Shown here piece by piece: positions 5,656-54,139 of a stretch of DNA of 64,000 bases (position 1 is its first letter; each line of letters starts with the position of its first letter). The stretch comes from Geosiphon pyriformis uo1 (taxonomy: Eukaryota > Fungi > Glomeromycota): the NCBI GenBank assembly GCA_016748015.1, contig JAAOMT010000294.1, forward strand, positions 102,541 to 166,540. Reading direction: 5' to 3'. A program made the position numbers and the translations under genes. Below the pieces are notes generated by a model. It saw only the letters and a program-made list of their open reading frames with translations, was not told the origin of the DNA and ran no database searches.

Positions 5656-7815
5656 ATGGCCACCAAAGGACCTCCTGTTCGAAAATCAAAAAAACGTAGA
5701 CTTGAGACTTCTAAAGTTGATAAGGAGGAAGAAAGTCAGGGCAATGTAATTGCACAACTAAAGTCGGTCGAAGGGGAGTCTTCCGGACCTCCACTGAGCT
5801 TGCCGGCTAACGTCACACCTCAACAGCTTCAACTTTTGATAAACCAATTACTAGACAACGTAAGTAAAAAATTGTAATCAGTTATGAAGGTTGAATCTTT
5901 AAACACAAACTTAAAACCTAATTATTAACCGAATTCAATTTTTCAGGAAGACCCTCTTCCTTATGCCTTCCACGTCGATGACAAAGAAATAACGACAAAT
6001 CTTTATCAGGACATTATTGAAGGATTAAATAAATCGACTGAGCACATTTTGACTATTATTTATCAACCTCAGGCCATCTTTCGGGTGCGGGCCGTGAATA
6101 GATGCAGTTCCAGTTTAAGCGGTATCAAGTTGAATTTCCCTTGCAATCCTTGATTATCGATTTGTTATTGATTATGATTTTTCTCGACATTATGCTCCCC
6201 AAATTTTTGGATCTACAGGGCATACAGAAGCCATATTGTCTGTTAGCTTTAGTCCTGATGGTACTCAACTTGCCACAGGTTCCGGTTCGTATCGATCTGA
6301 AGTTTCTTGGGCGTAATTAGGCTTTTAATATCTTATCTATTATCATCAGGTGATACCACAGTAAGAATATGGGATCTCAATACAGAAACTCCTCATCACA
6401 CATGCTCAGGTTAATACGATTAAACCGGCATAATTACAGTTTTAAAGATTGAGAACAATTATTAAATTTCTTTATACCTTTCAGGGCATACGAATTGGGT
6501 GCTGTATATCGCATGGTCACCCGACGGAAAATATCTGGCCTCTGGAAGTATGGACAACACGGTAAATTGCGATTCTGTTAGTTTTGGTCGAATATTTCAA
6601 AAATTTTTTTTAATATGCTGTGACTTTTAGGTTCGTGTATGGGATCCTTCAACAGGAAAATCAATTGGAGATGCTCTTAAAGGACACACAAAATGGATTA
6701 CGTCTTTAGCCTGGGAACCCCTTCACTTGTAATTATCCTTTTTCATTAAAGTAATACAACCATTATCTCATATTTCATTATTTTTTTTATAGAAACTCAA
6801 AATGTAATCGCCTAGCCTCTGCCTCAAAAGATGGAACGATTCGCGTTTGGGATGTCATCCTTCGGCGCCTATTATTTTCTTTAGCACAACATACGGCAGC
6901 GGTGACATGTGTCAAATGGGGAGGTGACGGCTTATTATACTCATCTAGCCAAGATAAATCTATAAAAGTCTGGGATGGTTTGGTAATTTTACATGATGAA
7001 ACTTAATTACTTGCTAATTTTTTATGTTACAATTTATTTCTTTCTTTCTTTCTTTCTTTGAAAGGGAAAACTTGTTAAGACATTATCTGGACATGCGCAT
7101 TGGGTTAATACCATGGCTTTGAGCACAGATTTTCTTTTGAGAACGGGAGCCATTGACCACACCGGTAAAACCCCAAAAGATGAGATAGAAGCAACAAATT
7201 GGGCCCTTGCTCGATATCAAGCGGGTCGAGGAAATAAAACTGAACGCCTCGTTTCAGGATCCGATGATTTCACGATGTTCTTATGGGAGCCAGCAACTAG
7301 CAAAAAGCCTATAGCCCGTCTAACAGGACATCAAAAACTTGTTAACCATGTTTGTTTTTCTCCGGATTCACGTTTTATTGCTAGTGCAAGCTTTGATAAT
7401 TCAGTAAAGCTTTGGGACGGATACTCGGGCAAATTCATTGCTTCATTAAGGGGACATGTGGGACCAGTTTATCAAGTTTGTTGGTCGGCTGACAGTCGAA
7501 TGTTGATTAGTGCTAGTAAAGATAGTACTTTAAAAATCTGGGATCTGAAAACACATAAGATCAAATCAGATTTACCCGGACATCTTGACGAGGTGAGCAG
7601 GTAATTTTCTTTTCTTAAAAGCATTTTTAAATTGATCTTTCCTATTGCAGGTCTTTAGTGTTGATTGGAGTCCTGGCGGTGATAAGGTGGCCAGTGGAGG
7701 TAAAGACGGACAGCTCAAGATGTGAGTACATTAGACATCAATAAAATGTAGATATTTGGATTTGTAATAGTCAAAATGAACGTTTTATTTCCCACAATAT
7801 AGATGGCGAAACTAA
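5656..7815 (+). CDS. RSA4: Ribosome assembly protein Rsa4 / Notchless (NLE domain + WD40 repeats); multi-exon
   Basis: NLE domain (LPANVTPQQLQLLINQLL; YQPQAIFRVRAVNRCSSSL), WD repeats (GHAHWVNTMALSTD; RLVSGSDDFTMFLW; RLTGHQKLVNHVCFSPD; DLPGHLDEV), ending KIWRN* at 7815. Confidence 0.95.
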
Positions 7816-9110: not shown

Positions 9111-12100
9111 ATGAAACAGAAATTCTCTGCACTTGATGTTCGGGCCACTGTCTCTGATTTAAGAGAGAGGTATGGAAATTATAATTTTTGGTCTTTTCAT
9201 TGCTTGATTATGATTGGCTCTTTTCCAAAATTTCTTTACACTTGCCAATCACATACGAGCAATGACCAAGGACAATTGATTGTCTCTGATCAATTTTTTA
9301 CAGGATATTAGGGCTCCGTCTACAAAACATCTATGATGTAAACGCGAAAACCTACCTATTCAAGTTCTCCAAGGTAAATTGAAATTTGAGAATCGCAAAA
9401 TCCTAATCTTTAATATCTTTTTGATATTTTTAGCCGGATCGCAAAGAACTCTTGCTTTTGGAATCAGGTATTCGTATTCATACTACACAATTTGCGCGTG
9501 ACAAATCGACGATACCATCAAACTTTTGTATGAAGGTAATTCTGTTTAGCAATCTTGTATATAGTATTTAATTTTCCAAGTATAAACAATTTCTTACTCA
9601 AGATTTCATAGCTGCGCAAACATCTTAGAACGCGAAGATTAACAGATGTTCGACAAGTTGGAATTGATAGAATCATTGATTTTGAATTTGCCGGTATTGG
9701 GGAAGGAATTACCTACCACATATTTACCGAATTTTATGCTTCAGTAAGCTTTTATTTAATCGGTGAAACTTGGAGGATCAAACCAAGAAAATTTAAATTT
9801 TGTCATTTTTAGGGAAATATTATTCTCACCGATCATGAATACATGGTTTTGGCCTTATTAAGGGTCGTCCAACCAAAAGAAAATGAGCGGATCGCCGTTG
9901 GACATACATATGACATTGGAGCCGTGGCTCGGAGCATAGAACCCATATTAAGGACGCGACTGCAAGATTTGCTAAAAAATGCTAAAAATGGTGAAACCTT
10001 GAAAAAAGTATTGAATTCTAACCTAAGTAAGTAATTGAAAAAATTTAAGCTATTGATTTTTTTAATGTAACCTCCCTTTTTTCCTTTAACCAGATTACGG
10101 ACAAACATTGACCGAACATGCAATTCGGGTTGCACAATTAAATCCGAACTTAAAAGTCACCTCTGAATTTGATACATCTGATGGTAATTTTTTTTTCAGT
10201 TTAGCAGCACTGAAAACATACTAAACAACCGGATTTAAAAATTAATAGAATCTATACAATTAAACGCGCTCTTAACCGGGTTTCAAGAAGCGGACCACTT
10301 AATTGAAGAGAGCGGCAGGAGAACTCAGAAGGTATTTCTTAATATTTATCCTCTCGATTCCTAATTTCAAATCATATCTCGTTGACCACAATCGTAACTT
10401 GGGAAAAGGGATATATTATTTTGCTCCGACGTTTCAAAAATCCTATAATTCACGATAACCAAGAGGAAGAGGTTGTGACGTACGTTTTTATTAAGATTTT
10501 TTGTAATATTCATTTCTTATCCATAAGAAATAATAAATGAAGGTTTTTACAGTTATGACGAATTTCATCCATATTTATTCGAGCAACATAAGCACAAGGC
10601 CTATAAGGAATTTGATTCGTTTGATATGGCTGTAGATGAATACTTTTCCTCGATGGAAAGTCAAAAACTAGAGATTAAGCAGCAAAACCAGGAAGAGGCC
10701 GCTTTAAAAAAGCTCGAGACCATCAAAAAGGAGCAATACGGACGCGTGCAAAACTTGGAACACGCGCAATCAGAGAATGTACGAAGGGCACTATCTATCG
10801 AGGCAAATATTGAAATAGTAGATCAAGCTATAATGGTTATACGGAATGCAATAGCAAGTTCAATAGACTGGAAAGACCTTGAAAATCTGGTAGCAGAAGA
10901 GAGAAAGAAACACAATCCAATTGCTCTTATAATTGATAAATTAAAATTAGATACGAATCAAATATCTTTGTCGCTCAGGTATACGCTCTTATCTTTCATA
11001 TTACTTTTTTGTGATTCATCTCTGACAAACCCTCAACAAAATAAGTTAATTTTAGAGAACTTGATCAAGAAACTTTTTATGATTCCTCTGATGATGAGGA
11101 TAAAGGAGAAGAAACAAAACCCAAAACTCCATCCAATCTTTCCAAGATAGACGTTGACATTTATTTATCGGCTTTTGCTAACGCTAGGAAATATTATGAT
11201 GCCAAAAAACAATCGGCTCTCAAACAAGAAAAAACTTTAGCCGTTGCTGACAAGGTGATTAAATATATTCAATAAAATCTCTTTAACTCTAATTCTTGTT
11301 TTTGTTTTTTATGACTAATACATTATCTTTAAAAGGCATTTAAAAGTGCCGAACAAAAAATTAAGCAAGATCTTAAAGAAACCAAGATTACTGCTACTAT
11401 CAATAAAATTCGTAAACCTTTTTGGTTTGAAAAGTTCATGTGGTTCATTTCTTCAGAGAATTACCTTGTCATTGCTGGACGAGATATGCAACAGAATGAA
11501 TTAATAGTCAAGCGGCACTTGCGTAAAGGTAATTCATATCTTTTTAGTGGAATAAATGATATTTTGCATAAAATTTACTTTTTTGTTTTAAAGGCGATGT
11601 TTATGTTCATGCTGATTTACATGGAGCTGCTTCGGTGATAATCAAGAATTCCCATGAAGGTGAGCCAATTCCTCCGAGCACGCTATTTCAAGCAGGGGTT
11701 ATGTCGGTTTGTCAGAGTAAAGCTTGGGAAGCAAAGATTATTACTAGTGCCTATTGGGTGAATGCAGATCAGGTAATTTGATGCATATCACTTTTCGGTT
11801 TTATCATAAACGAACTACTCTGATTCTTTTCGAATTTCAAATACTAGGTGTCCAAAACTGCACCTACTGGCGAGTATCTTACCACCGGTTCATTTATGAT
11901 TCGTGGTAAAAAAAATTTTTTGCCGCCAGTTCAACTCGTGTATGGTTATGGTCTACTGTTTCGTCTAGAAGAAGAAAGCATACCTAATCATCTTCATGAA
12001 AGGCGTCCACTTAAGGTGGAAGAAGCCACCGAAGAAAATCAGGTTAGAAACTATTCAATTAATTTATAAAAAAATTATATGTATAAATTTGTGAAGCAAT

Positions 12101-13994
12101 TATAATCTTTTTATCCATTGCGATTATTCGCAAATTGTGGGAGTCTGCATCATATTGACGATATCAATGAAATATATAGCTATACTCTTTCACGATTTTT
12201 GGTCTTCTATGCTAACAGCTATATTTTGCCATCATGGAAAACCATCGTGTCCGTGAAAACAACCTTAGCTGCTTTAAATAGTGTATATGGTAAATCTTCA
12301 TTATGGAGGGTCGTTAAAAAACGTATTTTATTATCAGAATATTAGAAATTCACCTTGGTCGGAAAATAATGTAGACTCTGATAGTGTCGATTCTGTCTTA
12401 GGTAATATGGTTATTGGATTTATTTTAATCGATACAGATACTAAAAATATTCACTTTAAAAAGCCAAACCAATTGTCCAAAGTCAGCAAATTTCGTCGGA
12501 GATACAAGAAACCGAACCAGAAAGTCCACGATCATTGTTTTCTGAAGGTCACGACATTTTAGAGCTGGACGATGAAGAAAATAATTTATTTCCTGATAAT
12601 CAAGATTCAAGCTCAGAAAATTCAAAATTTGATAAACCGACTTGGGATAAATACAATCTCGATGAGTATGGTAATGATCAAGAGGAGGAGCAAGAAGAGG
12701 ACAAGGATGACAAAACCGCTGATCAAAAAACTGTAAGACTGCTCAATTTTTTTATAGAAATCATAAATTAAAGCGCTTTTAAATAACATTCATTTTCATC
12801 AACTCAGAAAAAGAAACATCTAAGCGCAAAAGAAAGGCGTACATTAAAGAAACAAAAAGAAGGAAATCCGAGTGGTGCTATTGATGGCAATCCAGAAAAA
12901 CAGAATTCTAACAAAGGAAAAGAGGTGCATAAAGTTTTAAACGCAATTCTATTCGAATATTTTTTTAAGATGACTTGCTTTTGGGTGTTTTATTTAGGCT
13001 CTAAAACAACTCGTTACCCCCACACGTGGCAAAAAGGGTAAGCTAAAAAAAATAAAAGAGAAGTACGCTGATCAAGATGAAGAGGAAAGGCAATCTCGAA
13101 TGGAGTTATTATCGGTGAGTCCACCTAATATTATCATTATGATGATAAAAACAAAGTTTTAATCAATGCTTTAATGAAGCCGGCAAAAGGGCCTCAGCCT
13201 AAGGGTAAAAAGGCCAAAAAAGAGATGCGCAATCAGATCCTTACAAAAAAAATCAAGCAAGCTACAAAGGGTGATGAAAATGATGAAGTTATTAGTACAC
13301 AGCCAACACAAGACGATGAATTTGATGAAAAATTGGTGGGTTTTCGGTCATCTTGTGACCAAGAATATTGCTTAAATTCAATTAAGTCTTCTATGAAGTA
13401 AATTAAATTTGCCATCTTCAGGAGGTTGACGAAAATGAGTCGGAGGAAGTACGACAACTTTTAAAAGAAGAAAATGTGGCTACATTAGAAAATGTATGTA
13501 ATTATTTCCTTACAGTTTGCCATTGTCCCATTGCTTTGCTATCAGAACTGTTATCTGCTATCTTCGAATTTCCCTTAGGACAATTTGACAGTTTTGGATA
13601 CACTCACTGGCGTTCCATTTCCTAACGACATTTTATTGTTTGCCGTCCCGGTTTGTGCCCCGTATAGCGCTTTGAATAAATATAAATTCAAAGTGAAAAT
13701 AACACCTGGATCTATGAAGAAAGGGAAAGGTTAGTATTGTTCTTTCTCTCAAATCTGCTTGTCCACATGACATTTTTATTGGAAAAAATCTAACAGTTGG
13801 TAAAAACCTTAGCTTGTAAAATCGCCACCAATTTCTTCCTCGCTGATTCGAGTTTATCACCCAGGGAGAAAGAGTTAATAAAAAGTGTACCAGATACTGA
13901 AATGATATCAGTCATGTTGGGGAAGTCCAAAGTTTCTGCCCCGAATATTGAGCAGTCTAAAAAATCTGGGAAAAAATCATCTGGGAAAAAATAA
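9111..13994 (+). CDS. RQC2: Ribosome quality control subunit Rqc2/Tae2/NEMF; many exons
   Basis: [10 protein letters not shown]...[10 protein letters not shown]...[10 protein letters not shown]...[10 protein letters not shown]; [26 protein letters not shown]; [16 protein letters not shown]; [27 protein letters not shown]; [22 protein letters not shown]; [23 protein letters not shown]. Confidence 0.95.
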
Positions 13995-15956
13995 GCCAAA
14001 TGGGTTGCACTCCACAACAATGAGCCCTCCCATGATTCGTGGTCCAGTGCCCCTCAAGGATTGTACATTCCCCTTAAAATATAGACATGATACAAAATAG
14101 TTTTAATCAAATCATTTTATCCAATTCTTCCTAATAGTTTTAATTTAAACTACAAATTCGTTTTGTGATTGTAAAAAAAAAAATACCCAAACAAAGTTTA
14201 AAATAATATTGTTGGTGATTTTTATTTTTATTTTTATACAATATAAATTTTGGTTTTTCTATGTTATATAATAAAATATATATTAAATTTTATAATTTTT
14301 GCAGTTTATTGATTAATTATTACTTTAAAATAGTTATAATAATTAATATAATTAATATTTTTTATTTAATAACTTGAAATTAATATACTAATTAAATTTT
14401 TTTTTAATATAAATAATTTGAAATTACATAATAATTAGTTTATAAATTAAAATTGTTTTTTTATAAATTTAAAAAAAATTATTTTAAGCAAAACTTTTTA
14501 AAATTACACAATTCAATTATTTTTATATTAATTTTTTACTATATTAAAATAATATTTTATTAATAAAAAAATATTGAAAATATTTAACATATTTATTTTG
14601 GTTTATAAATTTTTTAATACAAATAGATTTTTAGTTAATTATTTTTATATTTTTTAATCTTTTAAATAGTTAAATAAACTGGTTTAAAATATATAAAATG
14701 TTGTTAGAGTTTGTTATATTTTTAAACAATTAATTTGTTATATTAATTGTGATTTTTTGGTTAATCGGTTTTTTTATTAAATTATTATATATATTATATA
14801 TTCTAAAATGGTAGTTATTTTGGAAATTGTTTTATTGAACTTATTTTATTTTTATAATTCTAAAACAGTTTTACATTATATTTTAAAAGATGAATTTATT
14901 ATTTTTTCGCCAATAATTTTGCAAAAAATTATAAATAAAAATATATATATGAATAAATTAAAAATCAAAATTGAATAAATTATATTGAATCTAATAAAAA
15001 TAACTTTTATTTTAGGTTCATGTAATTTTAAATAAATATATTATAATAATAATTATAATTTTAGTTGATTTGCTGAATTATTATAGTATTTTGCATGAAA
15101 TAATTACTTTGTCAATTTTTACTAAAGATCTTAAAACATCTTAAAATGATTTTAAAATAGAATCAAAAATATTTTATTCAAACTCAAACACAAATAAAAT
15201 TGCAAATTTATAAACCGTTAGCTGCGAAAAGATCCACATGATTCTTGTGAAACAAATGATTGTAATTGGTCAACACGAGATGTAAATTTTTTTGAAGATC
15301 TGACTCGGGACCACGCGCAACTCAAAATTAATTTCTTAAAAAACACGAACTAAATATTCTCCTTTTCTACATACTCTCTCAACTAATTGATCACTTACCA
15401 ACAGATTCACTTATCATTTCTCGCAAATAGCCAATTTCTTTCCCTGACTACAAAATGTAATCATATTATTTGAAGTGATATTTACTTATTGAAATTGATA
15501 AAACGTGATTATGAATAAAAAATGAATATGAATCGCGCGTCATATCAGTAAAAGTTTCCCAATACTTGAACCTTCATCCTTTCTAAGGCAGTTTCCCTTG
15601 TTGAAATGAGTTTGCTTTTTTTTTGTGTATATGATCATAATTGTGTTTGAATATACCACCGCTTAATATCATTGGTTCAAACTGTTCATGCAATTTTTCA
15701 CATATACCAAGCGAATTCCTTTTTTCTGATTTCTTCGTGATTTCAAATTCATATAAATTGAGTCTATACATCCTTTCACCATATAAATTTTCTGGTTTCC
15801 CTCTTTTTCCAATACGTTCATAACATCCACTGTATAGGATTTCCGTTATCTAAAAAAAGACACCTTTAAACTTTTTTCTTCCGAATCGAAACCCTTTTCA
15901 AGAAACTATTCGTTTTCTTTATAACAAACCTTCTAACAACCTCGTTATTTTATATC

Positions 15957-16821
<865 letters not shown>

Positions 16822-18286
16822 ATTATCTTTGAGCATTGTCACCGTTAATTTGAAATAATAATTTGCTATGCTTAGAAGTTGCTTTGAGGCTTCTTTAAAA
16901 GAATGTGAATATCAACTAGTAGTTACACCCACATGAATTTCCTTTGGTAAATATGAAATATTCTCCCTAGTATTGCTAATAAGGTAAAACCTTAACTTGC
17001 ACTTTACGTAAAATTTTCCAATTATGTGAAGCAATACCTTGTTTAACTTTTCGCAAAATCAAGTAAGAAATCATCGTTAGTCTTTTACTTTCCACTACAC
17101 TCTTTACTCGCTGAAACATTGATTGTTTCTATGTTGTTTAACATAAAGAGAGGCAAATGACATTCTTTTATGGTCGAATCTATAATATAAGAATATAATT
17201 GTTGAAACAAGTCGACCCAAAAGTAAAGGGTGTCACCCGTTATGCCTAATTTGTCTTCCAACTTTCTCTTCCCAATTTCCGGTTCTGGAACTGTTCTCAC
17301 AAAAATGGTAAGATTTCTAGAAAATCACTAATTAGTTGGCTTGTCGTCATTGAACATCGATTGTAAAGTGTGAAAGTATCAAAAACCAGCCATTAGTGCG
17401 GTTTTGAACCGAAAGAAAATAATATTTCAGGAAATTTCCTTCTTTTGAGTAATTAATTTCTGCAAACTACTACTAACGGTTAACACTTATCATTGTCTAT
17501 CGTGTGTTCTTAGGGGCAGAACATTTTGAAAATCCCGAGTTTTGTTTGTTTCCCCTAATCCTCTCAATCTTATAAACTCTAAATAAGCGTTTGGCAAACT
17601 GCCTTTATTACTTTCCCTTTGAGTCTTTATTAAGCGCAAAAAATCTTTATTTAGACACCAGAAGCAACAGAAGAGAGTAGTTATAACAGAATATTATGGT
17701 CAAAGTGTTTATCGAGACAAAGAAAACATGAAAAGTCTAAAAGTCTATTTGTAGGTTTATTTCTGAAGCTTCCACTTGGTCAGTCGTTCGCACCAAAGAA
17801 ACCGGAACAATACACAAATATCATCATCTATCAGTGGTAAACGTCCCCGTGGGTAGATACCTGGTGTGGCGCTGTGTGAAAGCAGAAGGAACAGGTATGA
17901 GTTGGGTACCTGGAAACTTTAAACATCTGGAACATTATATAATCAATTTTTATTATTTTAAATTGAAAATCTATATATAAAAGATTTTTTAATAAATTAA
18001 GTAAAAATTTATCCCAATATTGTTAGTTGGAAAGTTTGTTATTTATCAATTAATGTTAATAACATACTTTTAATTTTTTTAAATTAATTAAATAAAATTG
18101 TAATATAAATTTTGTTACAATAAAAATTCGATATTATAATAATAATAATAATAAAAATAATAATAAATTCTTATTTTATTACTTTTAAAATCACCAAAAA
18201 AAAATATATTTAAAAAAGTTTTTGTTTTTTATTATTATATATATTTATTATTGTATTTAATACTTTTTTATTTAAAAATTAACTAT

Positions 18287-19142
18287 TATTACAAAATAGT
18301 TTTCTTGGTATATTAAATATTAATATCTTATTTTAATTACAATTAATTTCTTATAAGTTTTTTAATTTTATTTATATAATAATATTAATATTATATTAAA
18401 AACTTTTTTTCTGATGTTTTAATATAAGTTATTTCTCAATTTTTAATTGTTATATATATTTATGTATTTTTTTTTAAAGGCTGAACTGAAATCTATTTAC
18501 TGTTTTGGAATTTTTTTGAGATTGTTTTTATAATTGTTTGATATGTTTTTTTAATTTAAAAACATAGAATATTAATAATCTTTAGTGTTTTTCTTAATTT
18601 TTACAATAAAGCTTTTATTAATTAATAATAATATAAATAATCTTGATTAAGAATTATTCATTCAAGAAATTTAATTAATAAATAATAATTTTATTTAGTA
18701 AATAATACAAATAAATTTTTTAATACTTTTAATTATAATAATTTAATTTTTAATATTATTTTTGATTTTTTTTTAATTTAAAAATTTTTTTGAATATTAA
18801 TTAAAAATAAAGATTAAAAAATAATTAAAAATAGAAGATTAAAATCTAATAAAATTAAATTATTAGATTAATTGTTGTTTTCTTAATATTAAAGCTATTA
18901 TATATATATATGTTTATAATTTTATAAGAAAACATATTGTAATCCTTTTTTTTGATATTTTAATCTGGTATTTATTATTATTACCAATTAATATTTACTG
19001 TAAACTAGTATTTGTTATTATTATAAAATAATGCTTATTATTATATTAATTATTATCTTTTTAAAATTATTACTGTATTATATTATAATTAAATATTTTA
19101 TATTATTTTATAATTTTTTTACTAAATTGTTAGATTATAATA
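18287..19142 (-). mobile_element. Heavily decayed solo LTR, gypsy family A
   Basis: Colinear with LTR 45369-46237 (e.g. ggctgaactgaaat, acaataaagctttta) mostly via C>T/G>A changes; termini TG..CA decayed to TA..TA; flanked by 4-bp TSD CTAT (18283-18286, 19143-19146). Confidence 0.85.
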
Positions 19143-19890
19143 CTATATTAAATAAATTTAACAAATTTATATTTAAAAATAAAGTTCTGGTTTTATTATA
19201 AATAAAAAAATAAAAATAAAATAAAAAAACTTTTTATTTTAAAGATTGTTTAATTAAGTTTTATATAAAAAACAAAAATTTAATTATTTTAATAACTTTT
19301 AACAATTTTTTTTGTTTTTTTGGCAGATTTGTTCTGATATTTTTTATTTTTTTAGTAAATTATTTAATTTTAATAAGTTAATTTTATATTTTTTTTATGT
19401 ATAAATTTTTTTTTAATAAATTAATTTAATAATAAAGCAAAAAAATAAAAAATTAGTATTTTGTTAATAATTATTAATTTAAAATAATAAATCTAAATTT
19501 ATGTTTTTAGTATTTGTTAATAATTAATAATTTTTAATATTAAATTTAATAATAATAATAACAAAACATATTTAACTGTAAATTACTTAATAATATAAAA
19601 AACTATTTTTAGCTTAAATTTAAAATTAACTAAATAATTATTAAGTTTTAAACAATAATAATTATAAAAAAAAATTGGATTTTAAAGTAGATTTTTATTT
19701 TGTTAATTTGTAATAGCTAATTAATTATTAAGAAAAAAATTTTAAAATAAGATAAAATTTATATGATTTAAATAATATTTTAATTATTTATAATAATTGT
19801 TTTTTTAACTTTAATAATTTATTTATAAATATTGTTTTTTTTCCAAAAAACTTTTTTATTTAACAATATATAAATAAATTATATTATTTA

Positions 19891-21386: not shown

Positions 21387-22357
21387 TGTTACTGAAGATT
21401 TTTGGTCTCTTTTCTTGAATGTTGTTAATGTTGATTTGCTGTGAATTCACATTTTCAGGAAGTAGTTGGACCTCCAGTAACTGAATTTATCTTCAAATTA
21501 TCTCTTATAATTTAAACTGCTGGGCTTATAAATAGAATGGCCAATTCTATGCCAATTACTTTATGTAATTACATTGTAGTAAATGTCAATTCTTTCCCAG
21601 GAATTGCTTGTCTGGAAGCTCACTAAAAATGTGTAGTTACTTTGCTGTAAAAGTCAACTCTTCTACAGGAATCTCATCTATAGGCTACTCTAATAATTAT
21701 AATAAGAAAAAAAAATAAAAATAAAAGAAATATAAAAGAAATAAAATTCTAACAAGAGAAATGTTTTTTATCCAGGTCTAGAGTCACTAACAGTTTATTG
21801 AAATTGGTAGCTAATCAATTTCAAAATGTTAGTTGTTAAGAGAATTTCAAGTGTAATAATTTTTAAGGATTTGTTTTTGAATATTTAATTTTTATTTAAG
21901 ATATGTAAAAAAAAGTGATTTGTTTTAATTAAGATATCTAAAGTAAGATACTATGGTAAGATATGGGAAGATTATTTTCTTGAAGAGAAAAGCTTTTCTT
22001 TTATACAACTTGTTGTAGTACTAGTCTTTAAACTTGCACTTTTCTCTTTTCTACAATTTGGGTGAACTAAAGATATATTTCGACAAATTACAAGTTATTT
22101 TACTGAATTTATTAATTATTTCGGCCAATTTCCATTAATTTTGGCGAATTTTGACTATGTTAAATGGTTCAGAGTATTGTGTAATTTAATTATCTTAATT
22201 TCTAGAGTACAAATTGAATTATTGATTGAGTAATGATATTTGATAATTTGATTAAATAATAAATGATAATCGAAATAATAATAATATATGCTAATTAATA
22301 ATAAAAATTATAAGGGTAATTTCATGCTAATTACTAGCTAAAATTCTACTGGTAATA
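21387..22357 (-). mobile_element. Solo LTR, family B
   Basis: Starts TGTTAC, ends GTAATA (decayed GTAACA); reverse-complement homologue of 57064-58045. Confidence 0.85.
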
Positions 22358-22723
22358 GTACTTATATGAAACAATAAAGACAAAGAAAAAAAAATAAATA
22401 AATTACAAATCACTATTTCTACAAAAAAACTAACAAGCAGTTGAAGTATTTATACTTAATACTAATGCTAAAAAAACACTTACTCTATATATTACTTAAG
22501 TGCATAGATTGCAAAAAAAAACTTTTGTTCATTGAAGTTTGCATATTACTTAAAGAGAAATATAAAACACACATATTACTATTGCAATGCATATTACTAA
22601 AAACAATTTGAATGACCAAAAAAACAAAGTAAATGAGATAATAAACCATATTTTGCTTGTAAAAAAATCTTATTTGATGAAAAAATGTCAAATAACATCT
22701 TTGGTCATAGAAAAATATATAAT

Positions 22724-24515
22724 TAGGGTTCCAATTGAACCAAACTGAATTAAACTTTGGATGTTATTCAAGTTTGGTTTAAATTACAAACCAAACTTAA
22801 ACTGAATCAATTTTTCAAAGTAAGTTTAGTTTAAATTTGGTATTAAATCTTTTTAACAAGTCTGAATTTGGTTCAAATTTGATTCAAAGTTTACAAACTT
22901 GTTTAAGTTTGATGAAATTAAAAAATATATAACTTATACTACTTGTTTATTAATCATTATTTTGTTTAATTACTATAATTAGTTAAAAAAATATATAAAA
23001 TTATACATATATAAAAACTCTACTTTTTAACTTACCAAAATAAATTTATTGTTGGTATTATCCAATGTTATTAAAGATTTAAAATTCGAAATAATAGAAT
23101 TTAATAACCCAAATAATCCAAATATTAATATATTTAGTAAACATAGTTTTTAAAATAAAGTATAAGACTATTTTAATAAGTTTGAATAAATAAATAATAA
23201 AAAAACAGCTAAATATACAGTCTCAAAATATGTACATAAACCATTTTTTTATAAAACTATGGGCATTACTAAACTCTTATGATATTATTTAGAGATTTCT
23301 TATTAAACAGTATATATTACAATAAAAAAATATTATAAAAAAAGACAAAATATTTAGAAAAATTGCAAATTAATTAAAAAAATGGTTTAATAGATGAGAT
23401 TGTTATTTTTTTTTATAATTTTTGGCCAATTTAATTAGAAAACTGCTTTAGCTTTCTGTAGTAACTGCTATTGATATTAATAATAAAAAACTTTATAACA
23501 TGATTACTATTTGGCTTATTAATTACCAGTAACTACTTCTTATAATAAAAGATTATAAATTAATTAAAATATTTTAATATTTAAACTCTACTTTTTAATT
23601 TGTTTATGCCAATACAATTAAAAATAGATAAGATTCCAATTGAACCAAATTTAACTGAATTTTGGATGTTGTTTAAGTTTAGTTCAAATTACAAACTGAA
23701 CTTAAACTAAACCAATTTTTCAAAATAAGTTTGGTTTAAATTTGACATTAAATTTTTTTGACAAGTCTGAATTTAGTTTAAAATTCACAAATTTGTTTAA
23801 GTTTAATAGAATTAAAAAAATATATAACTTGTATTATTTGTTCATTAATTATTACTTTGTTTAATTATTATAATCTAAAGAGTTATATAAAATTATACAT
23901 GTAAAACAACTCTATTTTTTAACTTACTAAAATGAATTTATTGTTAATATTATTCAATATTACAAAAAATTCAAAATCTAAAATAGCAGAATTTGATAAC
24001 TCAAATAATCTAAATATTAATATATTTGGTAAACATAGTTTTTAGAATAAAATATAGAACTATTTTAATAAGTTTGAGTAGATAAAAAAAAAACAGCTAA
24101 ATATATGGTCTTAAAATGTATACATAAATTATTTTCTTGTAGAATTACAGATATTACCAAACTCTTATAGTATTATTTAAAAATTTTTACTAGACAGTAT
24201 ATGTTACAATAAAAAAATATCATAAGAAAAGACAAAATATTCAAAAAAATTGTAAATTAATTGAAAAAATGTTTTAACAGATAAGATTGCTATTTTTTTT
24301 TATAATTTTTGACCAATCTAACTAGAAAACTGTTTTAGTTTTTTATAGCAACTACTATTAACATTAATAATAAAAAACTTTGTAACATGATTACTATTTG
24401 GCTTATTAACTATTAGTAACTACTTTTTATAGTAAAAGACCCTGAATTAATTATAATATTTTAATATTTAAACTCCACTTTTTAATTTGTTTGTGCCAAT
24501 ACAATTAAAAATAGA
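22724..24515 (+). repeat. Tandem duplication (~905-bp unit) of the hAT 5' end
   Basis: 22724-23628 and 23629-~24515 are colinear; both begin tagggttccaattgaacc/taagattccaattgaacc and both reach tgccaatacaattaaaaataga. Confidence 0.9.
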
Positions 24516-25320
24516 ATCATAAAATTTTATGTTTTAAGTAGACAAAAATTAAAAATAAGTACTGCTTTTATTATAAAATTTTTTTTTTCACTTATTTTTA
24601 TAATGTAATAAACATACTTAAGTATTATCAAGTCCAAAATTTTTTTTACATTAAATCTCTAAATATTTTCTAATAATAAAGTTTTTGTTTCTATTACTGT
24701 TTATTATATCAATAATAATTAAAATTTTTAACAAACAATAATTAATTTTGGATTAATAAATAGACAACATAATAAAATAAATATTCCAAATGAATTTTTT
24801 AAAATATTAAAAAATTATAGAATTACATCAAAAGTATGTACATATATTTTTGCATAAATTTAGATTAGTTAATAGCCAATAATGAGATTGGCATATTACA
24901 TAGCATATTAGTATTATCTAAAACTTAAAGTTATTATAATGCTTATATTATTAAAAATTATATTTTTTCAATATTGGCTTAAGTTGGTTTTTATTATTGT
25001 TTTAGAGCTAAATTTTTGGCATTAACATTATTTAAGACTTGGAGTTATTATAATGCTTATATTATTAAAAACTGTATTTTTTTAATATTAGTTTAAATGG
25101 TTTTTATTATTGTCTTAAGCCAAATTTTTGCCAAAAAAGTTAAAAAAAAATTATATTCATCTTGAATTTATCATTAATTTTATTAGCTATAATCTAATTT
25201 TTTTAATAGCTTCTTGTTATTATTTTTAATAATGCTGCAAAAAAATTTCTTTCTCTCTTTCATCCAAAATTCCCAAAAAAAAGTCAAAAGTTTTTTCGAA
25301 AGAAGTTTTTACCATTCAGT

Positions 25321-27179
25321 ATGATAAATCAAAACCATTCTTTGATTACGAGGCCACTGTTGGCTCTGTTATTGCTGTTATGAAGAAGACTATTAAAGTT
25401 TCTGGTTCTGAGAGTGGTTTTAAGATGGTTGTGTCAAGGAAGAAAAGGAAGGGAGGTGTATTGGCAGAGAGTATTGATAATAGAGGGGTTGTTGCTGAGG
25501 CTCCTAGTGCTTGTTCATGAGGTTCTGAAACAGGTGACACTACTGAGTCTGAGAGTATTGACATGGAGAAAGAGTGCTTGGTTGAAGAAACCAGTGTTAA
25601 CTATGGTGAAAATAGTGTTTTTGTGGAAGGAGATCCTAATCAAATGCCAAAGAGTTTGCGTGTAAAGACCAAAAAGATGTTAGGGAAGCCTCTGAGTGTG
25701 ATTGATTATGATACTGTCAATACAGATGATAACATGTTAGACAATTTTTTTCTCCTCCCGCCCCCTCTACCTATCAAACTGACCATTCAAGTGCCTGTTT
25801 GCAAATCTTTTGCTTTAGATATTGATCTTGTGGCCATCACTGAGAAGTCCTCTCAGGAAAAATTGAGTTTTATCAGGAAAATTTTTTCAAGTGTGAATGG
25901 TTTTGGGAGGGCTTCTACTCTCTTAAAATTTGGTGGAATTATTTGTGTGACTTTCACTTCAGAAAAGGCAATGATGGCTGTTGGGAAGTTGGCAAATGAT
26001 CATGGTATTGTGGTAAACACTAATCTCAAGCATCTTGTAAACAGCTGTATGAATTAGGCAATTGTGATAAAAAAAATTCCTATGGAAACTTCTGTGGAGG
26101 CTGTGTGTGCTGCCGTGTTCGAGTTTGGATTGATTAAGTCAATCAAAATACAACTGGTGAGTCTGTAGCAAAAAGCAATCATCAAATTAGAAGATCAGAA
26201 TCAGGCTAATCTCTTGACATCCAAATGGTCTATTCTCATTAGAAAGGATGCAGTATATGTGGCCAGGGCTGATGTTGACAAACAGACATGGGATTCCAGG
26301 AACAAATTCAGGACACTGTTATACACTTTTCTTATAGGGACAAATACTCATGACCTTTGGGATTTCATTGGTTTGATTAGTGAGAAAACATGTGTCATTG
26401 ATCATAATCCTGTTAGTTATGCTTGTGCTCACTGTGCTACTGTTTGCTTTAGGTCTGAATCTGATCTGGTTAGTGTGATGGCTGCAATCCCAGTTATAAA
26501 AGGGATTGGCCTTCGCTGGTCCCATTTCTTTTTGGCACTGTGCTCGGTCTGCAGTCTTTCTGGTCATACATCTCTCAATTGTGTTTTAGTTAAAGTTGGT
26601 TCAACCCTGAGGGGCAGAAAGACACCTCTTTCTGCTCAGGATCAGGTCAGGTTGGTGACTATCTATGCTTGGAAATTTGCATCCATTTTTCGTCCATTGG
26701 TCTTCAGTGGTAAGACTTGGACATCAGTTGTTGGTGCTCCTCTGGTGTGCAATTCTTATGGTACTGGTTCACTTCTTGGTTCTAACAATGTTAGTAAACC
26801 TCTCCCTTCTGCTGCAGATGATTTGGAAAAACATTTGGTTTGCATTGAAAGCAGTCTTGTCAGCCTCATAGGACAAATTGGTGAGTTGGCTAAGAAGTTG
26901 AAATCATTCATGCCAGCAGTTTTCCAGCCTAGTCCTGGATATTAGCTGTTGGTGACCCCCCTATCACAGAATCAAGGGGAGAATATAGTGATAGAAGTGG
27001 GTTTGGGTGATGCCACTAGTAACAAGACTGCTGCTGTTCTGGGTTCAACTGCCTTACTTGAGGTTGTAAAATTAAAAAACATGTTAAAAGATCTCTCTGC
27101 TTCAGTCATGTGTCTATCAGCACACTTGGATGGTTTGGCTTTGGCAGGTGGTGCTCTTCCTCTATCTCTTTCTCAATGA
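25321..27179 (+). pseudogene. LINE ORF1 (nucleic-acid binding, CCHC knuckle), premature stops
   Basis: ORF pieces 25563-26057, 26214-26945, 26949-27179; CSVCSLSGHTSLNC knuckle; start position approximate. Confidence 0.75.
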
Positions 27180-30100
27180 ATGGTCTGGTATGGAAAATTG
27201 CCACGTGTAATGCTCGTGGGTTGAACAATCCTGCAAAGCAAAATGATGTCATTTGTTGGCACAAGGATATGAACAATTTGGTTTCTATTTTTATGGAGTC
27301 GAAGCTTAAAAAGAAAGTTTGCCCATGGCTGGCTGACAAATTTGATGGTATTTGGATTTTTACTTCTGGTCTGAATGCTGGTTCTTTGGATACTGGAGTG
27401 TTAATTATCGTGAATTTTTCTTTAGCTAAACACATCTGCAAGGTCTTTGAGGTGCCTGGTCAGCTCCTATCCATCAAGTTACTTTTTAAAAACAAACTTT
27501 CAGTGTCTATTTTGGGGCTCTATGCAGGTGCTTCATTGGTAGTTTGGTCTTTTCAGGCTTGTAAAATCAACTCTTTCATTGTTAAAGCTGTTAATAAGTC
27601 TTTTTTTGTTATTCTTGGTGGTGATTTTAATGAGGATGGTTCTCACAAATGTGCCAGTTTCAAAAAATGTTTTGATTTGGGTTTGATTAACTCTCTGAGG
27701 GGGAGCTCTTTTGTGAAGTCACCTACTTGGTACAATTCTCGTGGTATCACTAAGACAATTGACTACGTGTTTGTTTCTTCTAATTTGGTTGATGTGGTGG
27801 TGAATCATGGTGTAGATGGCATTGGGGACTATTTTAACACTGATCACAAGGCTGTTTATGTTTCTGTGGAACTGGGTGGCCTGCTTGATATCCAGTTGAA
27901 CTCACTGTGCAAACAAGCAAATAGAGATTGTTGAAAGTATGATATCAAAAATGCCAGTAAAATTAAGTGGTCAGAATTCAGGAATGCTACGGCTGCTAAT
28001 GCTGTTATGTTCTCAGATGAGTTTGTTGCAGCTAAGCGGTTTTCTGATCTGAATGCGATGTGGGACATTATTCGTAAGATTATGGTTCTTTTGGCTGGTG
28101 GAACATTCAAAAAAAAATGGTTTAAGAGTTTCGATTGTGTTTTTAATAAGATGTCTTCCCGGTTTCATAAATTGGAGCTACTTGTGTCTAAACTAGTAAA
28201 GGTTTCTTAGTTGGTTTCTGGTGGGAATTTTGCCTCGTTGTTGAATACTTGGAACAGACTTGATTCTGTAAGCGCTTTGCCAGTGAATTTTCTGTTTCTT
28301 TTTGGTGCCAGTTTTGATGCGATCTGTTTTGGGCTGGCTAAGGCAAAAAAGTCTTACCACTCTTCTAAGTTGTTGGAATCTAAGCATATGGAAGAATCTC
28401 ATATAAGACAGGCTATTGAGAGGAGAATAGAGAGTTTTGAGATGAATAAGGGTCATACCATTAGAAGTGTTTTGGAGCATCCTTTTCGTAAAATGGTGTT
28501 GGATTATTTGGTGGACAGTAGAGAATTGGTCTTGGAGCCTGAGTTGGTTAAATCTAAGGTGGATGGAATCATGGAGGGTTGGACTAGAAAACGTGTGATG
28601 GCTTCTAATATTTCTGGTGATTGGGCAAGGCAATTTTGGTCTTTGGATTATGTCTTTGATGACACCTTCTCTGATGTGATGCATTCAATCGGTTTTGATA
28701 AGATGTTTGGTGTTGTTTCAGATTTGTCTGATGGGAAAGCAGCTGGTTTTTCTGGTATTACTAATGAACTTTGAAAACACTATGACAAGTCAGTTTTGGA
28801 TATGCTTTTGGTGCTCTTAAATTTTTGTTTGGATTGTAAGTTGGTGCCTGGATCTTGGAGAGAAGCCTGGGTCTCAATGATTCCTAAACCTTATGAGTGG
28901 GAGGGAGTTCTTACAAATACCCATCCCATTGCTTTGATTGAAACAGCTCACAAAGTCCTTTCCAAGATTTTTTCAGATCGGATATCTCTGGCTTATAGCA
29001 CTTTTGATGTACTCTGTGGGGACAATTTCTCTGTTCTGAAAGGTACGTCTACTCAATCGCCTATCTTCACTATTGGTTTGGTGATCAAAGATGCTTTGGA
29101 AAAGAACCGAGAGCTGTGGCTGGTTTTACAGGATATGTGCAAAGCTTATAATTCTGTTGGTTGGAAGCATCTTAAGAGGAGTTTGGTCAGAATCAAAATG
29201 TGTGACAAATTTATCAGATTTTTTGGTAGCATTCATAATGGTTGCACTAACAGAGTGATAACAGATTTTGGTTTGACTGATGAATATCATGATTACAATG
29301 GATTGGATCAGGGGGAGGTTTTTTCATCACTTCTCTGGCACATATTTTATGACTCATTTTTATGTGAGGTTAAGAGACAGAAGAGCATTTGTGGTTACAG
29401 GTTGATTTTTCATTTCGTTTCTAAGATTGGCTGGGTGGAATCTCAAGCTGGGCTGATGTCGTTTCTGGTTGCTGGTGCTTTTGTTAATGATACTATCTGA
29501 ATTGGTAGCAGCCAGGCTGCTACACAACACATCCTCAATGTTATTAGTGATTTTTTTCATTTGAATGATATTTCTATAAACAATGACAAGACTGTGGCCA
29601 TTCTTATCAACTGTCAAGTCACTGCTCCTTATTTGACTATTAGTGGTTTGCCAATTTCCATTGCTAAAAGAGATGAACCTCATCATTATCTGGGGATTTT
29701 TTTATCTTTTGAAGGTTTTTCGAAGCCCAGCTTGGCTAAAAAGCATTCAGATGTTTGGTTTTTCATCAATCACATTCTAAGAAAAGTTATTTCAGATAAA
29801 CAGTTTGCTTATTTGGTGTCTTCAGTTCTCTTTCCTATTGTCAGCTATAGTAACTCAGTTTAGTTTTATTCCCTTTAGTGTGTGTATTAAATGGGATGCT
29901 TTGATTCATAAGGGCCTGAAATCTAAATCTGGGCTGCCTTTGGACTTTCCCAATGATGTGCTTCCTTATTCTTCCTTGTACAATTTAAAAACTTTTGAGC
30001 AGATTTAGGCTAAAAGCAAGTCGGCTTCTGTCATTGTTTTTGTGAATTTGGTTGGTGTTTTGGGTCATTTGTTTTCCCATAGATCTCACGATTTCCAGGT

Positions 30101-31865
30101 TCTCAACTGGCATCTTTGTCACCCTTTGTTGTTTCCTGTTCATGTTGGAATCAGCCCTTCAAACAACTTTTTGGCAAGTGTGGTTTGTATTTTTTCTGGG
30201 TGTGATTTGTCTTTGGGTGGCTCTCTGGCTAGTGCTTTTTGTTTTTGGAGCAGTACTCCTATGTTTCTAGTTCTCGGCAAGACAATTTTCTCCAAATGTG
30301 TCTTTTCTCTTAGGCATTATAGTATTGCTTTCATAAAACAGCTTTGTGACCAGAATGGTATTGTTTTTGATTGGAAGACTTTCAAACATTGGAAAAGACT
30401 GGACCTCTGTGGCCCGGTCTCCTTTTGGTTTGATCTTTCTGTACATTTTCTTGGTGGTGTAGCTTTTTTTTCTGGTCATTCTCCTCATGAGAGTGTTTGT
30501 GGCTCTTCTGACATCTGTCAGTTTCTTGGTTTTGGTGCTATTTGTAATAATCTGTTGAATGTTGGTGCCACTCGCCTCTCTGTATACACAGATAGATCTC
30601 TGAATAACTTGGATACTTTTGACATATTGGCTGGTGCTGTGGCTTTCTTTGAAGACATTGATTCAGGTCTGGGTGTGGGGGTTTCTGGTTTGGTTTCTTC
30701 TACTTTGGTGGAGTTACAGGCCATTGCTTTAGCTCTTGAGTGTGTTTCTTCTTTTCATTCGGTTGACTTGTTCTCAGACAGCCAGACGGCTATAGATGCT
30801 TATAGGTCGGAGTCTTTATCGGTTGGCCCTGATTTCAGGAATTGTTGTTGGATTGAGTGTTGTCACATTGCCAATGTCATTCATCGTAAAAATTTGGATG
30901 TTAATTGGATTAAGGTTAAGGACCATTCGGGAGTTTTAGGCAACAAGCGTGCTAATGCATTGGCTAAAAATGCTGCCCTTTCTGTCTGACACCTGCCCCA
31001 CTTGGTCAGTGAGAGGTTTTTAAAGGCTAGTATTGATACGGTTTCTGGTAATTCGAGGCATTTTGTTTGTGACGTATTTAGGTCAATTTATTGCATGCAC
31101 TGGGAGGTTGGTTCTGGTTTCCGGGTTGTTCCTGGTTGTTTGCATGCTGATATTGACTGGTTGAGGTCTTCTCTGGTATGGCACCCGGATTTCCACATGG
31201 TGATTGGTTTTACTAGTATTCGGACAGCCAGCTTTCATACATATTTCATAAAAGTCTTTCATCATCATCTTTCTGTTGCTGTGTGAAAGCATCTGTATAA
31301 TAAGGGTTATCCCAGTATAGTTTGTTTGTTCTGTAGTGAGATTGAAGTCTCAGACCATGTTTTTTCTTGCTCTTCTGATACTGGTAGTTATGCCGGTTTG
31401 TTGGACACTTATGCAGCTGCCTGGGAGGTGCGTTCTAGTCTGTCTCATTCTTCTTTGTGCATATCACAGTTGTTGTTGACTTGTATTTCAGATGTGACTG
31501 TCAGTATGGCTTTGTGTAAGGGCTTTGTTTTCAGCAATTGGTATTATAAGTCTGTTTCTGTTTATAAGAATCCTAAGATGGCAATGGTTAATGTTGTGAA
31601 TTTTGTATGTGAGTTTTGTCTTGCATTTCGTGATAATATCTGGCTGGTCCATGTAAAACACTGGGCCATTATGGAGAAGAATAAGCTGATTCCACATAAT
31701 GGTTCCATTCCTGTCGCTGTTTCTGGTTTTTCTATACAGCTTTTAGCTAAGGTGGTTAGGTTGTTGGGTGTTGTTAATGCACTTAGCATCAGTTTTAGGT
31801 ATCATAAACATTGTTTGTTTTATGCAAGTGTTGGTGACATGGCTTCTGTTCATATAAGTATGTAG
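27176..31865 (+). pseudogene. LINE ORF2: AP endonuclease - reverse transcriptase - RNase H - Zn finger, disrupted
   Basis: IATCNARGLN, ILGGDFN, TIDYVFVS, TDHKAV (APE); PIALIE, QDMCKAYNSV, QGEVFSSLLW, AFV(D)DT (RT); VYTD(G)SL, ELQAI, FSDSQ, KVKDHSGVLGN (RNase H); CLFCSEIEVSDHVFSC. Confidence 0.92.
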
Positions 31866-33629
31866 TGTTGTTCTGACTAGTCTGAGTGTTTGGTCATGTA
31901 TAACAAAGGCATGATTTACACCTAGTTTAGATTATTTGTATGATGTATAGCACTAAGTGGCATTTGGACTTCACTCATTAAAAAAAAAATGCTGCAAATA
32001 ATAATATTTTTATAAGAGAGTTAGTAAAAAAAATTAAAAAAAGAAAACTTTCAATAGAATTCAAAGAATCTTTGATTTTAATGCTTTAATTATATTCTAA
32101 ACTTGGCAGTGCAGATGGCTTTAGATGAAATAAAAAATGATGTTTTTAAGGTATTTATTAAAAATCCAAACTAAATATATTTATTTAAAATTTTTTTAAT
32201 GTAAACTTTATATAAATTAAAAATTAGAGAACTTAACTCTGCAATTCATATCTTATACTAACATTTTAAGCTTTTTGAACATATTTGTAATATATGTTAA
32301 ATTAAATACTATAAACTTATTTTGGATTGTTTTACCCAGTAGAATTTTACTTATAACATAGTTAGAAATAAGTTATTTTTTAAATTGGCAAGTTATTTAT
32401 TTCTAATTCTATATATTTTGAATGCAAAAATTTTAATTGTAAATTTATAAACATTAAATACTCTTACTAGTACTCATATTAACTTTTATTAATATGCTAT
32501 TTTACATAATTAGTAAACTGTCTTCAATAAAATTACTAAATTTCTTAAATTATTTAAAGATATTATAATTAAAATATTAGCCAATTCAAATAATACTGCT
32601 TTTTTAATTATTTTTCTCTTTAATATTATTTTTAATTACATTGAAAACACAGTTGATGATAATAAATTTGGTAAAGTATTATAATTTCAATTGTATTTAT
32701 TTAATTATTTATATAATATATTTAATATTAGATTTATTATTTGTTGTAGTAACTAGGATAACAAAAGAAAAACTAATTAAATATTATTCTAAAACAAACA
32801 CAACTATAATGTTCTGTATTGTATTAAATTCAAGAAAAAAATTCTATTATTTTACAAAAAGTGAATTTTTGAATAACAATATTAATTTATTTAAATGTTT
32901 TTATTTTCTAACTTTTACATAATAATAAATCTTTAAAATATGTACTTTCTTTGAAACAAAGTACATATTGAATATTATACCAACATTAAATAACAGTTTT
33001 TTATTAAATAGTAATTTTAATAATATTATAGTATTAGTCATATAATCTATATTAGAGGAAGATTTTGACTATAATAAAAAGAAGAACTTAATAAAATTGA
33101 TCATTATATCTCTAAAAAAATGGCCAATAGAAAAATAAATATAATAGTATAGTGGAAAATATATTATAAAAATATTTATCTAAATTAATATTTTATTAAT
33201 AATTTAATATTTAGATATATTAAACACAATTTTCTCATTTTGTATATATAACTTATAATTATTTGGCAATCCAAGAATTATTTATTGCTTCTGAACATGT
33301 TTTTTTTGTAGATGAGAATATGAATACAGATACAAAGTTTTGTTTAATGCTTAAAACTAAAAAAACAGTACAGTGTTTTTAATTATAAATACAGAAATTA
33401 TTAAAAAAAAATTAAATAATAATATAGTATAATATAATATTTTTAATAATTAAACCTAAACATGTTCATAAACTTTGAATTGAACTTGAATCAGACTTGT
33501 TATATGTGTTCAGGTTCAATTTAAGTTCAATAATTTTAAGTTTAATTTAAGTTTAAGTTTAAAATTTTGCCAAATTTTTTGTTCAAGTTTAATTCAGTTC
33601 AGTAATTTAATTGAACTTAAATCAAACTA

Positions 33630-39863: not shown

Positions 39864-40229
39864 ATAATTAAAATTCTGTTAAAAAAAATTTTAAAAAAAT
39901 TTTTCTTGTTATTTTAATAAATAGAATAGATTATATGTTTGTTAAAATGTTTTTTACTTATATAATTTAAAAATTTATTAACATTTAAGCTTTTTTTTTA
40001 TTTAAAATTATTTTTATATATAAACAAAAATTTATTATATTTAATAAAAAGTTCAAAACAATTTTATTATAGTATTTTTATATTTTATTTAAAATTATGT
40101 ATTTTTTAATTTATATTTTTATAATACAATCTGTTTTAATTTAATTTGTATAATATATAAATATAGCTAAATATAATAATCAGATTATATAATATTCTAA
40201 ACTATCTAATATTTAAAAATTTAATAAAA

Positions 40230-54137: not shown

Positions 54138-54139
54138 AA

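Follow-up and report, generated by a model that had tools for sequence, protein, structure and literature searches.

The window, a stretch of 64,000 nucleotides with three N gaps, comprises a gene block at 1–17.9 kb, a BUD31 island at 37.1–38.7 kb, and nested LINEs and Ty3/gypsy elements. The host genes that serve as controls are a WD40 gene (5656..7815, + strand, nine introns), which we take to be Rsa4/NLE1-like, the NEMF/Rqc2 gene, which keeps its CpG (9111..13994, + strand, end coordinate read by eye), a histone H3 gene (15957..16820, + strand, three introns) and BUD31 (37124..37968, + strand), a CpG-intact island (observed/expected 1.02) with desert on either side. The spliced NEMF model equals the G. 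pyriformis protein G9A89_009377 at 671 of the 671 residues checked, and its exon at 10554–10976 matches a Geosiphon pyriformis protein with 100% identity, the next matches being other Glomeromycotina at 68–74%. The initial annotation, made from the letters alone, had proposed a non-Dikarya host; the host is indeed Geosiphon pyriformis, of the Glomeromycotina.

Unique DNA in the window retains its CpG. The observed/expected ratio is 0.93 in host coding sequence and 0.76–1.15 in unique intergenic DNA of 31–35% GC, while 27 introns (26.4% GC) hold 35 CpG against 35.6 expected and four-fold sites stand at 36.9% GC. Geosiphon-specific changes in NEMF, relative to 15 Glomeromycotina proteins, comprise 22 of C>T type, 12 of the reverse and 41 of transversion type, a comparison that spans deep time in a gene under selection. 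Judged by composition, C:G>T:A decay is confined to repeated DNA and is lacking in introns, four-fold sites and host protein; the control is composition plus one selected gene rather than a neutral substitution spectrum. Neighbouring genes thus keep CpG, as the initial annotation had stated, and the general AT drift that it named as a counter-reading is not seen in the composition of introns, which lie at 26% GC with CpG at expectation. A GC-richer stretch at 17700–17930 also keeps CpG and ends abruptly at a desert edge; it is possibly an exon or promoter, and an Rfam search of the window, this stretch included, returned no matches.

The focal feature at 18287..19142 (− strand, the sense of its parent Ty3/gypsy element) is a decayed solo LTR of a family termed here LTR A, identified by full-length homology to the LTR of a gag-pol element and by its target-site duplication (TSD). 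It is 856 bp long with 10.5% GC and no CpG, it lies between perfect 4-bp duplications (CTAT/CTAT at 18283–18286 and 19143–19146), and its TG...CA ends have decayed to TA...TA. With a decay-aware matrix it aligns to the young LTR at 610 bits, against 22–29 for shuffles. A second decayed solo copy lies inverted at 39031..39863 (+ strand, 833 bp, 14.5% GC, no CpG), with the TSD TTAT/CTAT in which one copy has changed by C>T. The young Ty3/gypsy element (45369..54843, − strand as read from PBS-like and PPT-like sites) sits inside a LINE with the TSD CTGT/CTGT and carries gag, protease, a dUTPase-like region, RT, RNase H and integrase. Its 3′ LTR (45369..46237, − strand, 30% GC) served as the reference; its 5′ LTR (54140..54843, − strand, 30% GC) is interrupted by an assembly gap of N at 54595–54634.

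The initial annotation had presented these sequences as a young pair and two solo copies that keep length and TSDs but have lost most C and G. The description of the solos is accurate, and the young pair is present, but its second LTR is gapped and the solos belong to another branch of the family. Diagnostic sites and indels are common to both solos and absent in the young pair, with matching loose ends among short-read contigs, so the solos derive from a sister subfamily and not from the element at 45369–54843. The young LTR is therefore a proxy for the ancestor only, and many of the 18 transversions that separate it from the focal solo are shared by both solos and represent older subfamily differences. 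An origin of the two solos by one segmental duplication was rejected: their flanks are unrelated, and a longer BLAST match is AT noise. A 369-bp, 99.7% copy of LTR A at 47190–47558 lies between two 20-N gaps (47170–47578) and is likely an assembly artefact. All five 4-base TSDs (18283, 39027, 45365, 57060 and 21383) have TG, CA or TA at their centre, which are the decay forms of a CG centre.

The substitutions that separate these copies are strongly directional. The young pair differs by 21 transitions and no transversions in 653 columns; 6 of 32 CpG sites have changed against 15 of 412 non-CpG sites (p=0.002), a roughly sixfold faster rate at CpG, with 15 of the 21 changes outside CpG. From the young LTR to the focal solo, leaving out the poorly aligned columns 526–712, C:G>T:A change affects 150 of 216 sites, T:A>C:G 14 of 467 and transversions 18 of 683, and a whole-LTR alignment with a symmetric matrix has the same outcome (180/255). 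Both strands are affected alike (C>T 75/104, G>A 75/112), as is every 3′ context: CpA 69/93 (74%), CpC 23/30 (77%), CpT 49/74 (66%) and CpG 9/9 (100%). The second solo repeats the pattern, with C:G>T:A at 123 of 211 sites (CpA 55/89, CpC 21/30, CpG 7/10, CpT 40/72), and the two solos differ from each other by 99 transitions and 13 transversions in 742 columns. Alignment gaps are few but present, nine from solo to solo and twelve from young LTR to focal solo. The earlier claims that CC, CT and CA cytosines are lost as well as CpG, on both strands and with few indels, are accordingly upheld.

Plain CpG-limited decay was rejected as the cause. Non-CpG sites contribute 141 of the 150 changes in the focal solo, and the excess, which the initial annotation allowed might disappear once CpG sites are removed, persists without them (141/197 against 14/467 for the reverse, p ~1e-79), although CpG is depleted in repeats and not in genes. 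APOBEC-type editing of cDNA, which would leave a one-strand G>A bias set before insertion and common to both LTRs, was likewise rejected: C>T and G>A changes number 75 each, and the LTR pair, the TSD copies and the tandem duplicate described below all contain differences. Differences between the two LTRs of one element, within two TSD pairs and between tandem copies imply action on chromosomal DNA after insertion.

Other repeats in the window show the same pattern at several stages, and two LTR families step down from 30% to 8–10% GC. In a second LTR family (LTR B), GC falls from 30% to 25% to about 10% across a least decayed solo (57064..58045, 12 CpG, TGTTAC...GTAACA, TSD GCAG/GCAG), an intermediate solo (21387..22357, 4 CpG, TSD GTGC/GTAC) and a fossil copy within a 9.5% GC desert (40137..40778, 221 bits, where shuffles reach 29 at most). 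The fossil copy has C:G>T:A at 123 of 190 sites and the reverse at 8 of 436; the least decayed pair is noisier, with 89 transitions, 32 transversions and 20 gaps. An LTR B remnant in the desert to the right of the focal solo (19597..19724) matches 40390–40556 at 62 bits, against 22 in shuffles. The candidate assignment of 57064–58045 to LINE sequence was rejected, as it is a solo LTR of this second family. A tandem duplicate with a unit of about 905 bp (22707..24515, both copies 18% GC) differs by 114 transitions and 9 transversions in 826 columns, divided into 57 changes per copy. The start of its unit (22730–22913) has an inverted relative at 33449–33615 (64 bits against 26), which marks the unit as a dispersed repeat of unknown class. 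In the two old pairs, tandem copies and solo LTRs A, the loss of C per C site, corrected for double hits and reading all transitions as C loss, runs at about 90 times the per-site transversion rate.

LINE sequences extend the series. An early-stage decayed LINE with endonuclease, RT and RNase H (25250..32035, + strand, start approximate) has 39% GC and a CpG observed/expected ratio of 0.22; in young elements the ratio is 0.2–0.6. Of 50 protein matches to a LINE RT piece, 46 are named G. pyriformis. A decayed RT piece adjoins the second solo LTR (38833..39014, − strand, 82 bits against 22–24 in shuffles). A weaker match at 41674..41814 (− strand, 43 bits against 23–25 in three shuffles) is likely a fossil LINE endonuclease piece, with C:G>T:A at 46 of 57 sites. 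The segments 42788–45362 and 54848–57060 are one LINE, interrupted by the young gypsy element and a second time by the solo LTR B, and its two halves are collinear with the LINE at 27456–32035. Comparisons of LINE with LINE and gypsy with gypsy were kept out of the counts, as divergence between active families is mixed into them.

Several features of the gypsy elements were also observed. Within 47991–49651 a stop at 48362 closes the RT/RNase H frame, and the integrase zinc-binding domain is encoded in another frame, with its first Met beyond that stop. Related extra ORFs without a Pfam match follow the integrase in both gypsy families (46251–47003 and 58643–59069). A dUTPase domain lies between protease and RT in each, at 62261–63178 by Pfam and at 49790–50458 by likeness, and its presence is of note given the heavy C>T pressure in this genome.

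The dUTPase-bearing ORF of the second gypsy family (62261..63178, − strand) was the query for a genome-wide protein test. Its best 120 of 624 matches, all 120 named G. pyriformis, were compared at columns that held at least 60 sequences with a 60% majority and that agreed with the codon in the window, with ambiguous routes skipped; as these are the best-scoring stop-free copies, the load distribution is trimmed and transversions may be depressed. The window ORF itself departs from the family majority at 23 places, 21 of them of C>T/G>A type (21:1:1 for C>T type, reverse and transversion type). Across the best 120 of 624 matches, amino-acid changes of C>T origin per opportunity reach 2089/18167 (0.115), compared with 0.0084 for T>C and 0.003–0.004 for each transversion, that is, 14 times T>C and 30–40 times each transversion. 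Rates in the same copies are 0.12–0.15 at CpC, 0.10–0.12 at CpT and 0.21 at CpG; CpA is at 0.11 with a third-codon-position neighbour and at 24/576 (0.042) at the few codon-fixed sites. By 5′ base they are 0.152 at TpC and 0.077 at ApC.

Short reads extend the pattern to the LTR family. Among 3798 contigs of run X1 placed on LTR A, 67 variable places comprise 64 transitions and 3 transversions; this run may be the assembly's own source. The family is abundant, with 876 of the 3798 contigs at 99% identity or more, and 497 are under 90% alike. The alternative that sequencing or assembly errors created the AT-rich copies draws on the three N gaps, on the near-identical LTR duplicate between gaps and on read evidence that covers the LTR family rather than the solo loci. 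Errors, however, would produce indels and not directional transitions, the solos have TSDs of their own, the short-read contigs vary by transitions in the same way, and the protein set is genome-wide as well; we regard an artefact as extremely improbable. Repeat-restricted, all-context, both-strand C:G>T:A decay is thus confirmed as real, strong and genome-wide.

Contigs of runs X2 and X3 skip 45507–45707, 45791–45865 and 45893–46015 in the young LTR, with about 2.1–2.2 kb upstream of the LTR in these contigs. On the + strand, antisense to gag-pol, two of the skipped stretches have GT..AG ends and the third fits them once shifted by 2 bases. They likely reflect a spliced antisense transcript that some copy produces across LTR A. 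A scan of metagenomes with the LTR pattern gave no matches, and the 26 related RT loci in metagenomes include none that is close (31–56% identity).

The AT deserts, which the initial annotation had interpreted as fossil transposons, amount to 7600 bases in 200-bp tiles below 15% GC. That interpretation holds for the 2230 bases (about 30%) covered by assigned transposon remnants; the remainder has no partner in the window. Decay-aware alignment within the window found no parent for 1–560, 14190–15180, 17945–18286, most of 19143–19900, 24500–25400, 32040–34450, 36620–37050 or 42100–42800. These include a desert at 14200..15100 (10.5% GC), in which TpC is depleted and GpC enriched, and the desert that hosts the focal insertion (17945..18286, 9.4% GC). 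The sharp boundaries described earlier are found at about 17930, where GC drops from 42–56% to 10% within 50–100 bp, but the edge near 14190 is graded over about 150 bp. RIP indices in the deserts are close to 1 (TpA/ApT 0.98–1.16; (CpA+TpG)/(ApC+GpT) 0.75–1.16), so they would likely appear marginal in a screen that relies on CpA.

Parentless deserts share a residual signature, with C at 0.059 after T and at 0.12–0.18 after other bases. In young LTRs and in unique intergenic DNA the preceding base makes no such difference, and TpC is depleted in deserts only. These deserts are likely either relics of greater age or unique DNA that has come to lie in silent chromatin. Rates derived from the protein test predict an equilibrium of 8.9% GC, and the deserts lie at 8–10.5%, which suggests that decay comes to equilibrium at its end point near 9% GC. 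A genome-wide C>T bias that acts with no targeted mark, with genes, introns and promoters protected by selection, open-chromatin repair or GC-biased gene conversion, would account for the AT-leaning introns (26%) and four-fold sites (37%), for a clock-like load and for the roughly 70% of desert DNA with no identified transposon parent; the unique-DNA control, being composition and one selected gene, leaves it room. Against this, introns have CpG at expectation and GC three times the predicted equilibrium, host protein has no such excess, TpC depletion is limited to deserts, and C>T in repeats runs at 14 times T>C and 30 times C>A, compared with Ts/Tv of 0.9–1.5 in fungal mutation-accumulation lines (PMC10234303). 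We consider a bias of this kind improbable.

The initial annotation described the process as context-relaxed, which is correct in that all contexts are lost, but the loss is not flat: CpG decays 2–6 times faster in young copies, and TpC about 1.3–2 times faster than other 5′ contexts. A tally by 3′ base gives CpA 120/460, CpC 39/170 and CpT 113/488 (p=0.52 among non-CpG), with CpG at 24/62; the CpA preference usual for RIP is absent. TCH sites were lost at 58/71 and 48/62 in the two solos, compared with 83/126 and 68/129 at the remaining non-CpG sites (p=0.02 and 0.001). UV dipyrimidine damage was rejected as the main cause, because purine-C-A sites were lost too (33/48 and 26/48). The TpC preference, in the solos and in the proteins (0.152 against 0.077 at ApC), is what an AID/APOBEC-like or toxin-type cytidine deaminase acting on chromosomal repeat DNA, independently of methylation, might leave behind. 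Such an enzyme is nevertheless quite unlikely to be the cause, as the preference is only 1.3–2-fold, strand-coordinated clusters are absent, strand symmetry and changes that postdate insertion rule out editing of cDNA, and the CpG-first order would need methylation anyway.

RIP mutation is episodic, clustered and strand-biased within a copy. The load among the best 120 of 624 protein copies is unimodal (0.034–0.208) and rises with that of transversions (rho 0.50, p 4e-9), strand overdispersion is absent (chi2/df 0.82), and none of seven strand-run tests was significant. Because load rises with transversion load and strand-biased bursts are absent, slow wear fits better than episodic RIP. The RIP-like character proposed by the initial annotation is retained as regards repeat restriction and action after insertion, but RIP in the strict sense is less well supported by the unimodal load, its correlation with transversions and the lack of overdispersion.

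True RIP would have RID/DIM-2 recognise duplicated premeiotic DNA, with little context preference and in many weak rounds over cryptic sexual cycles. The near-pure C:G>T:A spectrum is in its favour, as are the equal effects on both tandem copies (57 and 57), although on the question of a homology trigger decay passes the limit of about 80% identity below which RIP weakens (PMC8016269), running far beyond it, and partnerless deserts carry the same signature. Arbuscular mycorrhizal fungi (AMF) are said to carry RID and DIM-2 (PMC8298701); in Neurospora, DIM-2 mediates RIP of older heterochromatic repeats (PMC11969663), and no process other than RIP yields overwhelming C>T (PMC10234303); and CpT and CpG signatures are known in other RIP fungi (PMC4352252). 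Conversely, CpA is not preferred and CpG is fastest here, whereas a survey of 1239 genomes found CpA preferred across RIP-like defences (PMC12543289). Strand-skewed copies or runs are absent and load tracks transversions, although many mild rounds could mask bursts. LTR A is also still very abundant (876 of 3798 contigs at 99% or more), and LTRs make up 41.2% of the Geosiphon genome (PMC11952901). On balance, true RIP appears unlikely, while retaining more weight than a deaminase or a genome-wide bias.

Dense all-context methylation of repeats by a DIM-2-like enzyme, followed by deamination, is the explanation we favour, with modest confidence. Silenced repeats would be densely methylated at CpG and non-CpG cytosines by predicted DIM-2-type and maintenance enzymes, and the methylated cytosines would deaminate at a steady high rate, whether spontaneously or through the methyltransferase itself, with genes and introns spared. 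The CpG-first loss points to methylation, and 5mC is the presumed substrate, probably written by a DIM-2-like enzyme; the order CpG > TpC > other may mirror methylation density or enzyme preference. Methylation in Rhizophagus irregularis covers 32.5–49.5% of all cytosines, and DNMT1, DNMT2, DNMT5, DIM-2 and RID are said to occur in the AMF clade (PMC8298701); a 2026 review places RID in Ascomycota only (PMC13297926). At 28% GC, the Gigaspora value, CpG could hold only about 14% of C, so much of the R. irregularis 5mC is presumably non-CpG.

Other fungi with DIM-2 may speak against wear through methylation, as their cases differ from this one. Dim2 in Zymoseptoria drives a more than 10-fold mitotic C>T excess in repeats, over 98% of it at CA (PMC8016269). 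H3K9me3 DNA of Neurospora has no mitotic C>T excess (Ts/Tv 0.93; PMC10234303), which implies that sparse methylation would be insufficient and keeps RIP in play. Phycomyces has a DIM-2 homologue, yet only 0.9% CHH methylation (PMC11258239). A gradual appearance would also result from RIP in many mild rounds.

Four known systems come closest to the Geosiphon pattern. The Dim2 mutator of Zymoseptoria tritici is similar in being nearly all C:G>T:A, repeat-confined, non-CpG and steady over time; it needs no sexual cycle and is tied to a non-CpG methyltransferase (PMC8016269). More than 98% of its changes fall at CA and CG is spared, whereas in Geosiphon, a member of another phylum, CpG is fastest, CpA, CpC and CpT are about equal and there is a mild TpC bias; in Geosiphon both the enzyme and a mitotic origin are putative. 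RIP in Neurospora and the Pezizomycotina (PMC12543289, PMC11969663, PMC10234303) shares with Geosiphon the repeat-restricted C:G>T:A change, the effect on both duplicates and AT-rich relics beside intact genes. Geosiphon differs from it in the lack of CpA preference and of bursts or strand clusters, in a load that tracks age, in reaching about 9% GC and in the abundance of the family. CpG-limited decay of the DNMT1/Masc2 type in rusts, Microbotryum and Tuber (PMC4352252) likewise removes CpG first and leaves young elements CpG-poor, but in Geosiphon most changes lie outside CpG, 141 of the 150 in the focal solo and 15 of the 21 between the young LTRs. Rhizophagus irregularis, of the same subphylum, has methylated repeats and very high total 5mC; in the parts of these sources available, only the CG context is mapped and all-context decay is not described (PMC8298701, bioRxiv 10.1101/2021.03.30.436303).

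Repeat-directed hypermutation is viewed as largely ascomycete, with a CpA signature (PMC12543289). According to Dallaire et al., RIP signatures went undetected in Gigaspora margarita or Mucoromycotina (bioRxiv 10.1101/2021.03.30.436303). The 130 species to which Badet and Croll 2025 assign a strong signal are ascomycetes, and CpA is preferred in them; Geosiphon is absent from that paper's text and from the 12 of its 19 supplementary files searched (PMC12543289). The accessible portion of an AMF transposon survey mentions neither RIP nor deamination (PMC11952901). The full-text literature covered, which also took in parts of PMC12344493 and PMC7862722, holds no description of the pattern in Geosiphon; a prior mention is possible in the Geosiphon genome paper or in Bewick et al. 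2019. The repeat-restricted C>T decay reported here thus appears to differ from described forms, with none found described for the Glomeromycotina lineage, and its mechanism is a reading of sequence data.

A further, doubtful reading would make this an active repeat-directed C-to-T mutator without 3′ context preference, a RID/DIM-2-based variant of RIP predating the Dikarya split, which erases transposons to about 9% GC and is barely visible to CpA-based indices; if premeiotic, it would record repeated cryptic sex in a lineage long called ancient asexual. If the process is only methylation wear, as we favour, it would be an extreme and apparently undescribed case of known chemistry. A context-free form in Glomeromycotina with an outcome of RIP strength would escape the usual indices. 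Transposon ages and repeat content in these genomes would be misjudged, because old copies turn into AT-rich DNA that goes unrecognised and because transitions outpace transversions by tens of times. The pattern also raises two questions: is non-CpG methylation heavy in mycorrhizal fungi, and do their RID/DIM-2 genes act as mutators of repeats? The second of these has a bearing on cryptic sex.
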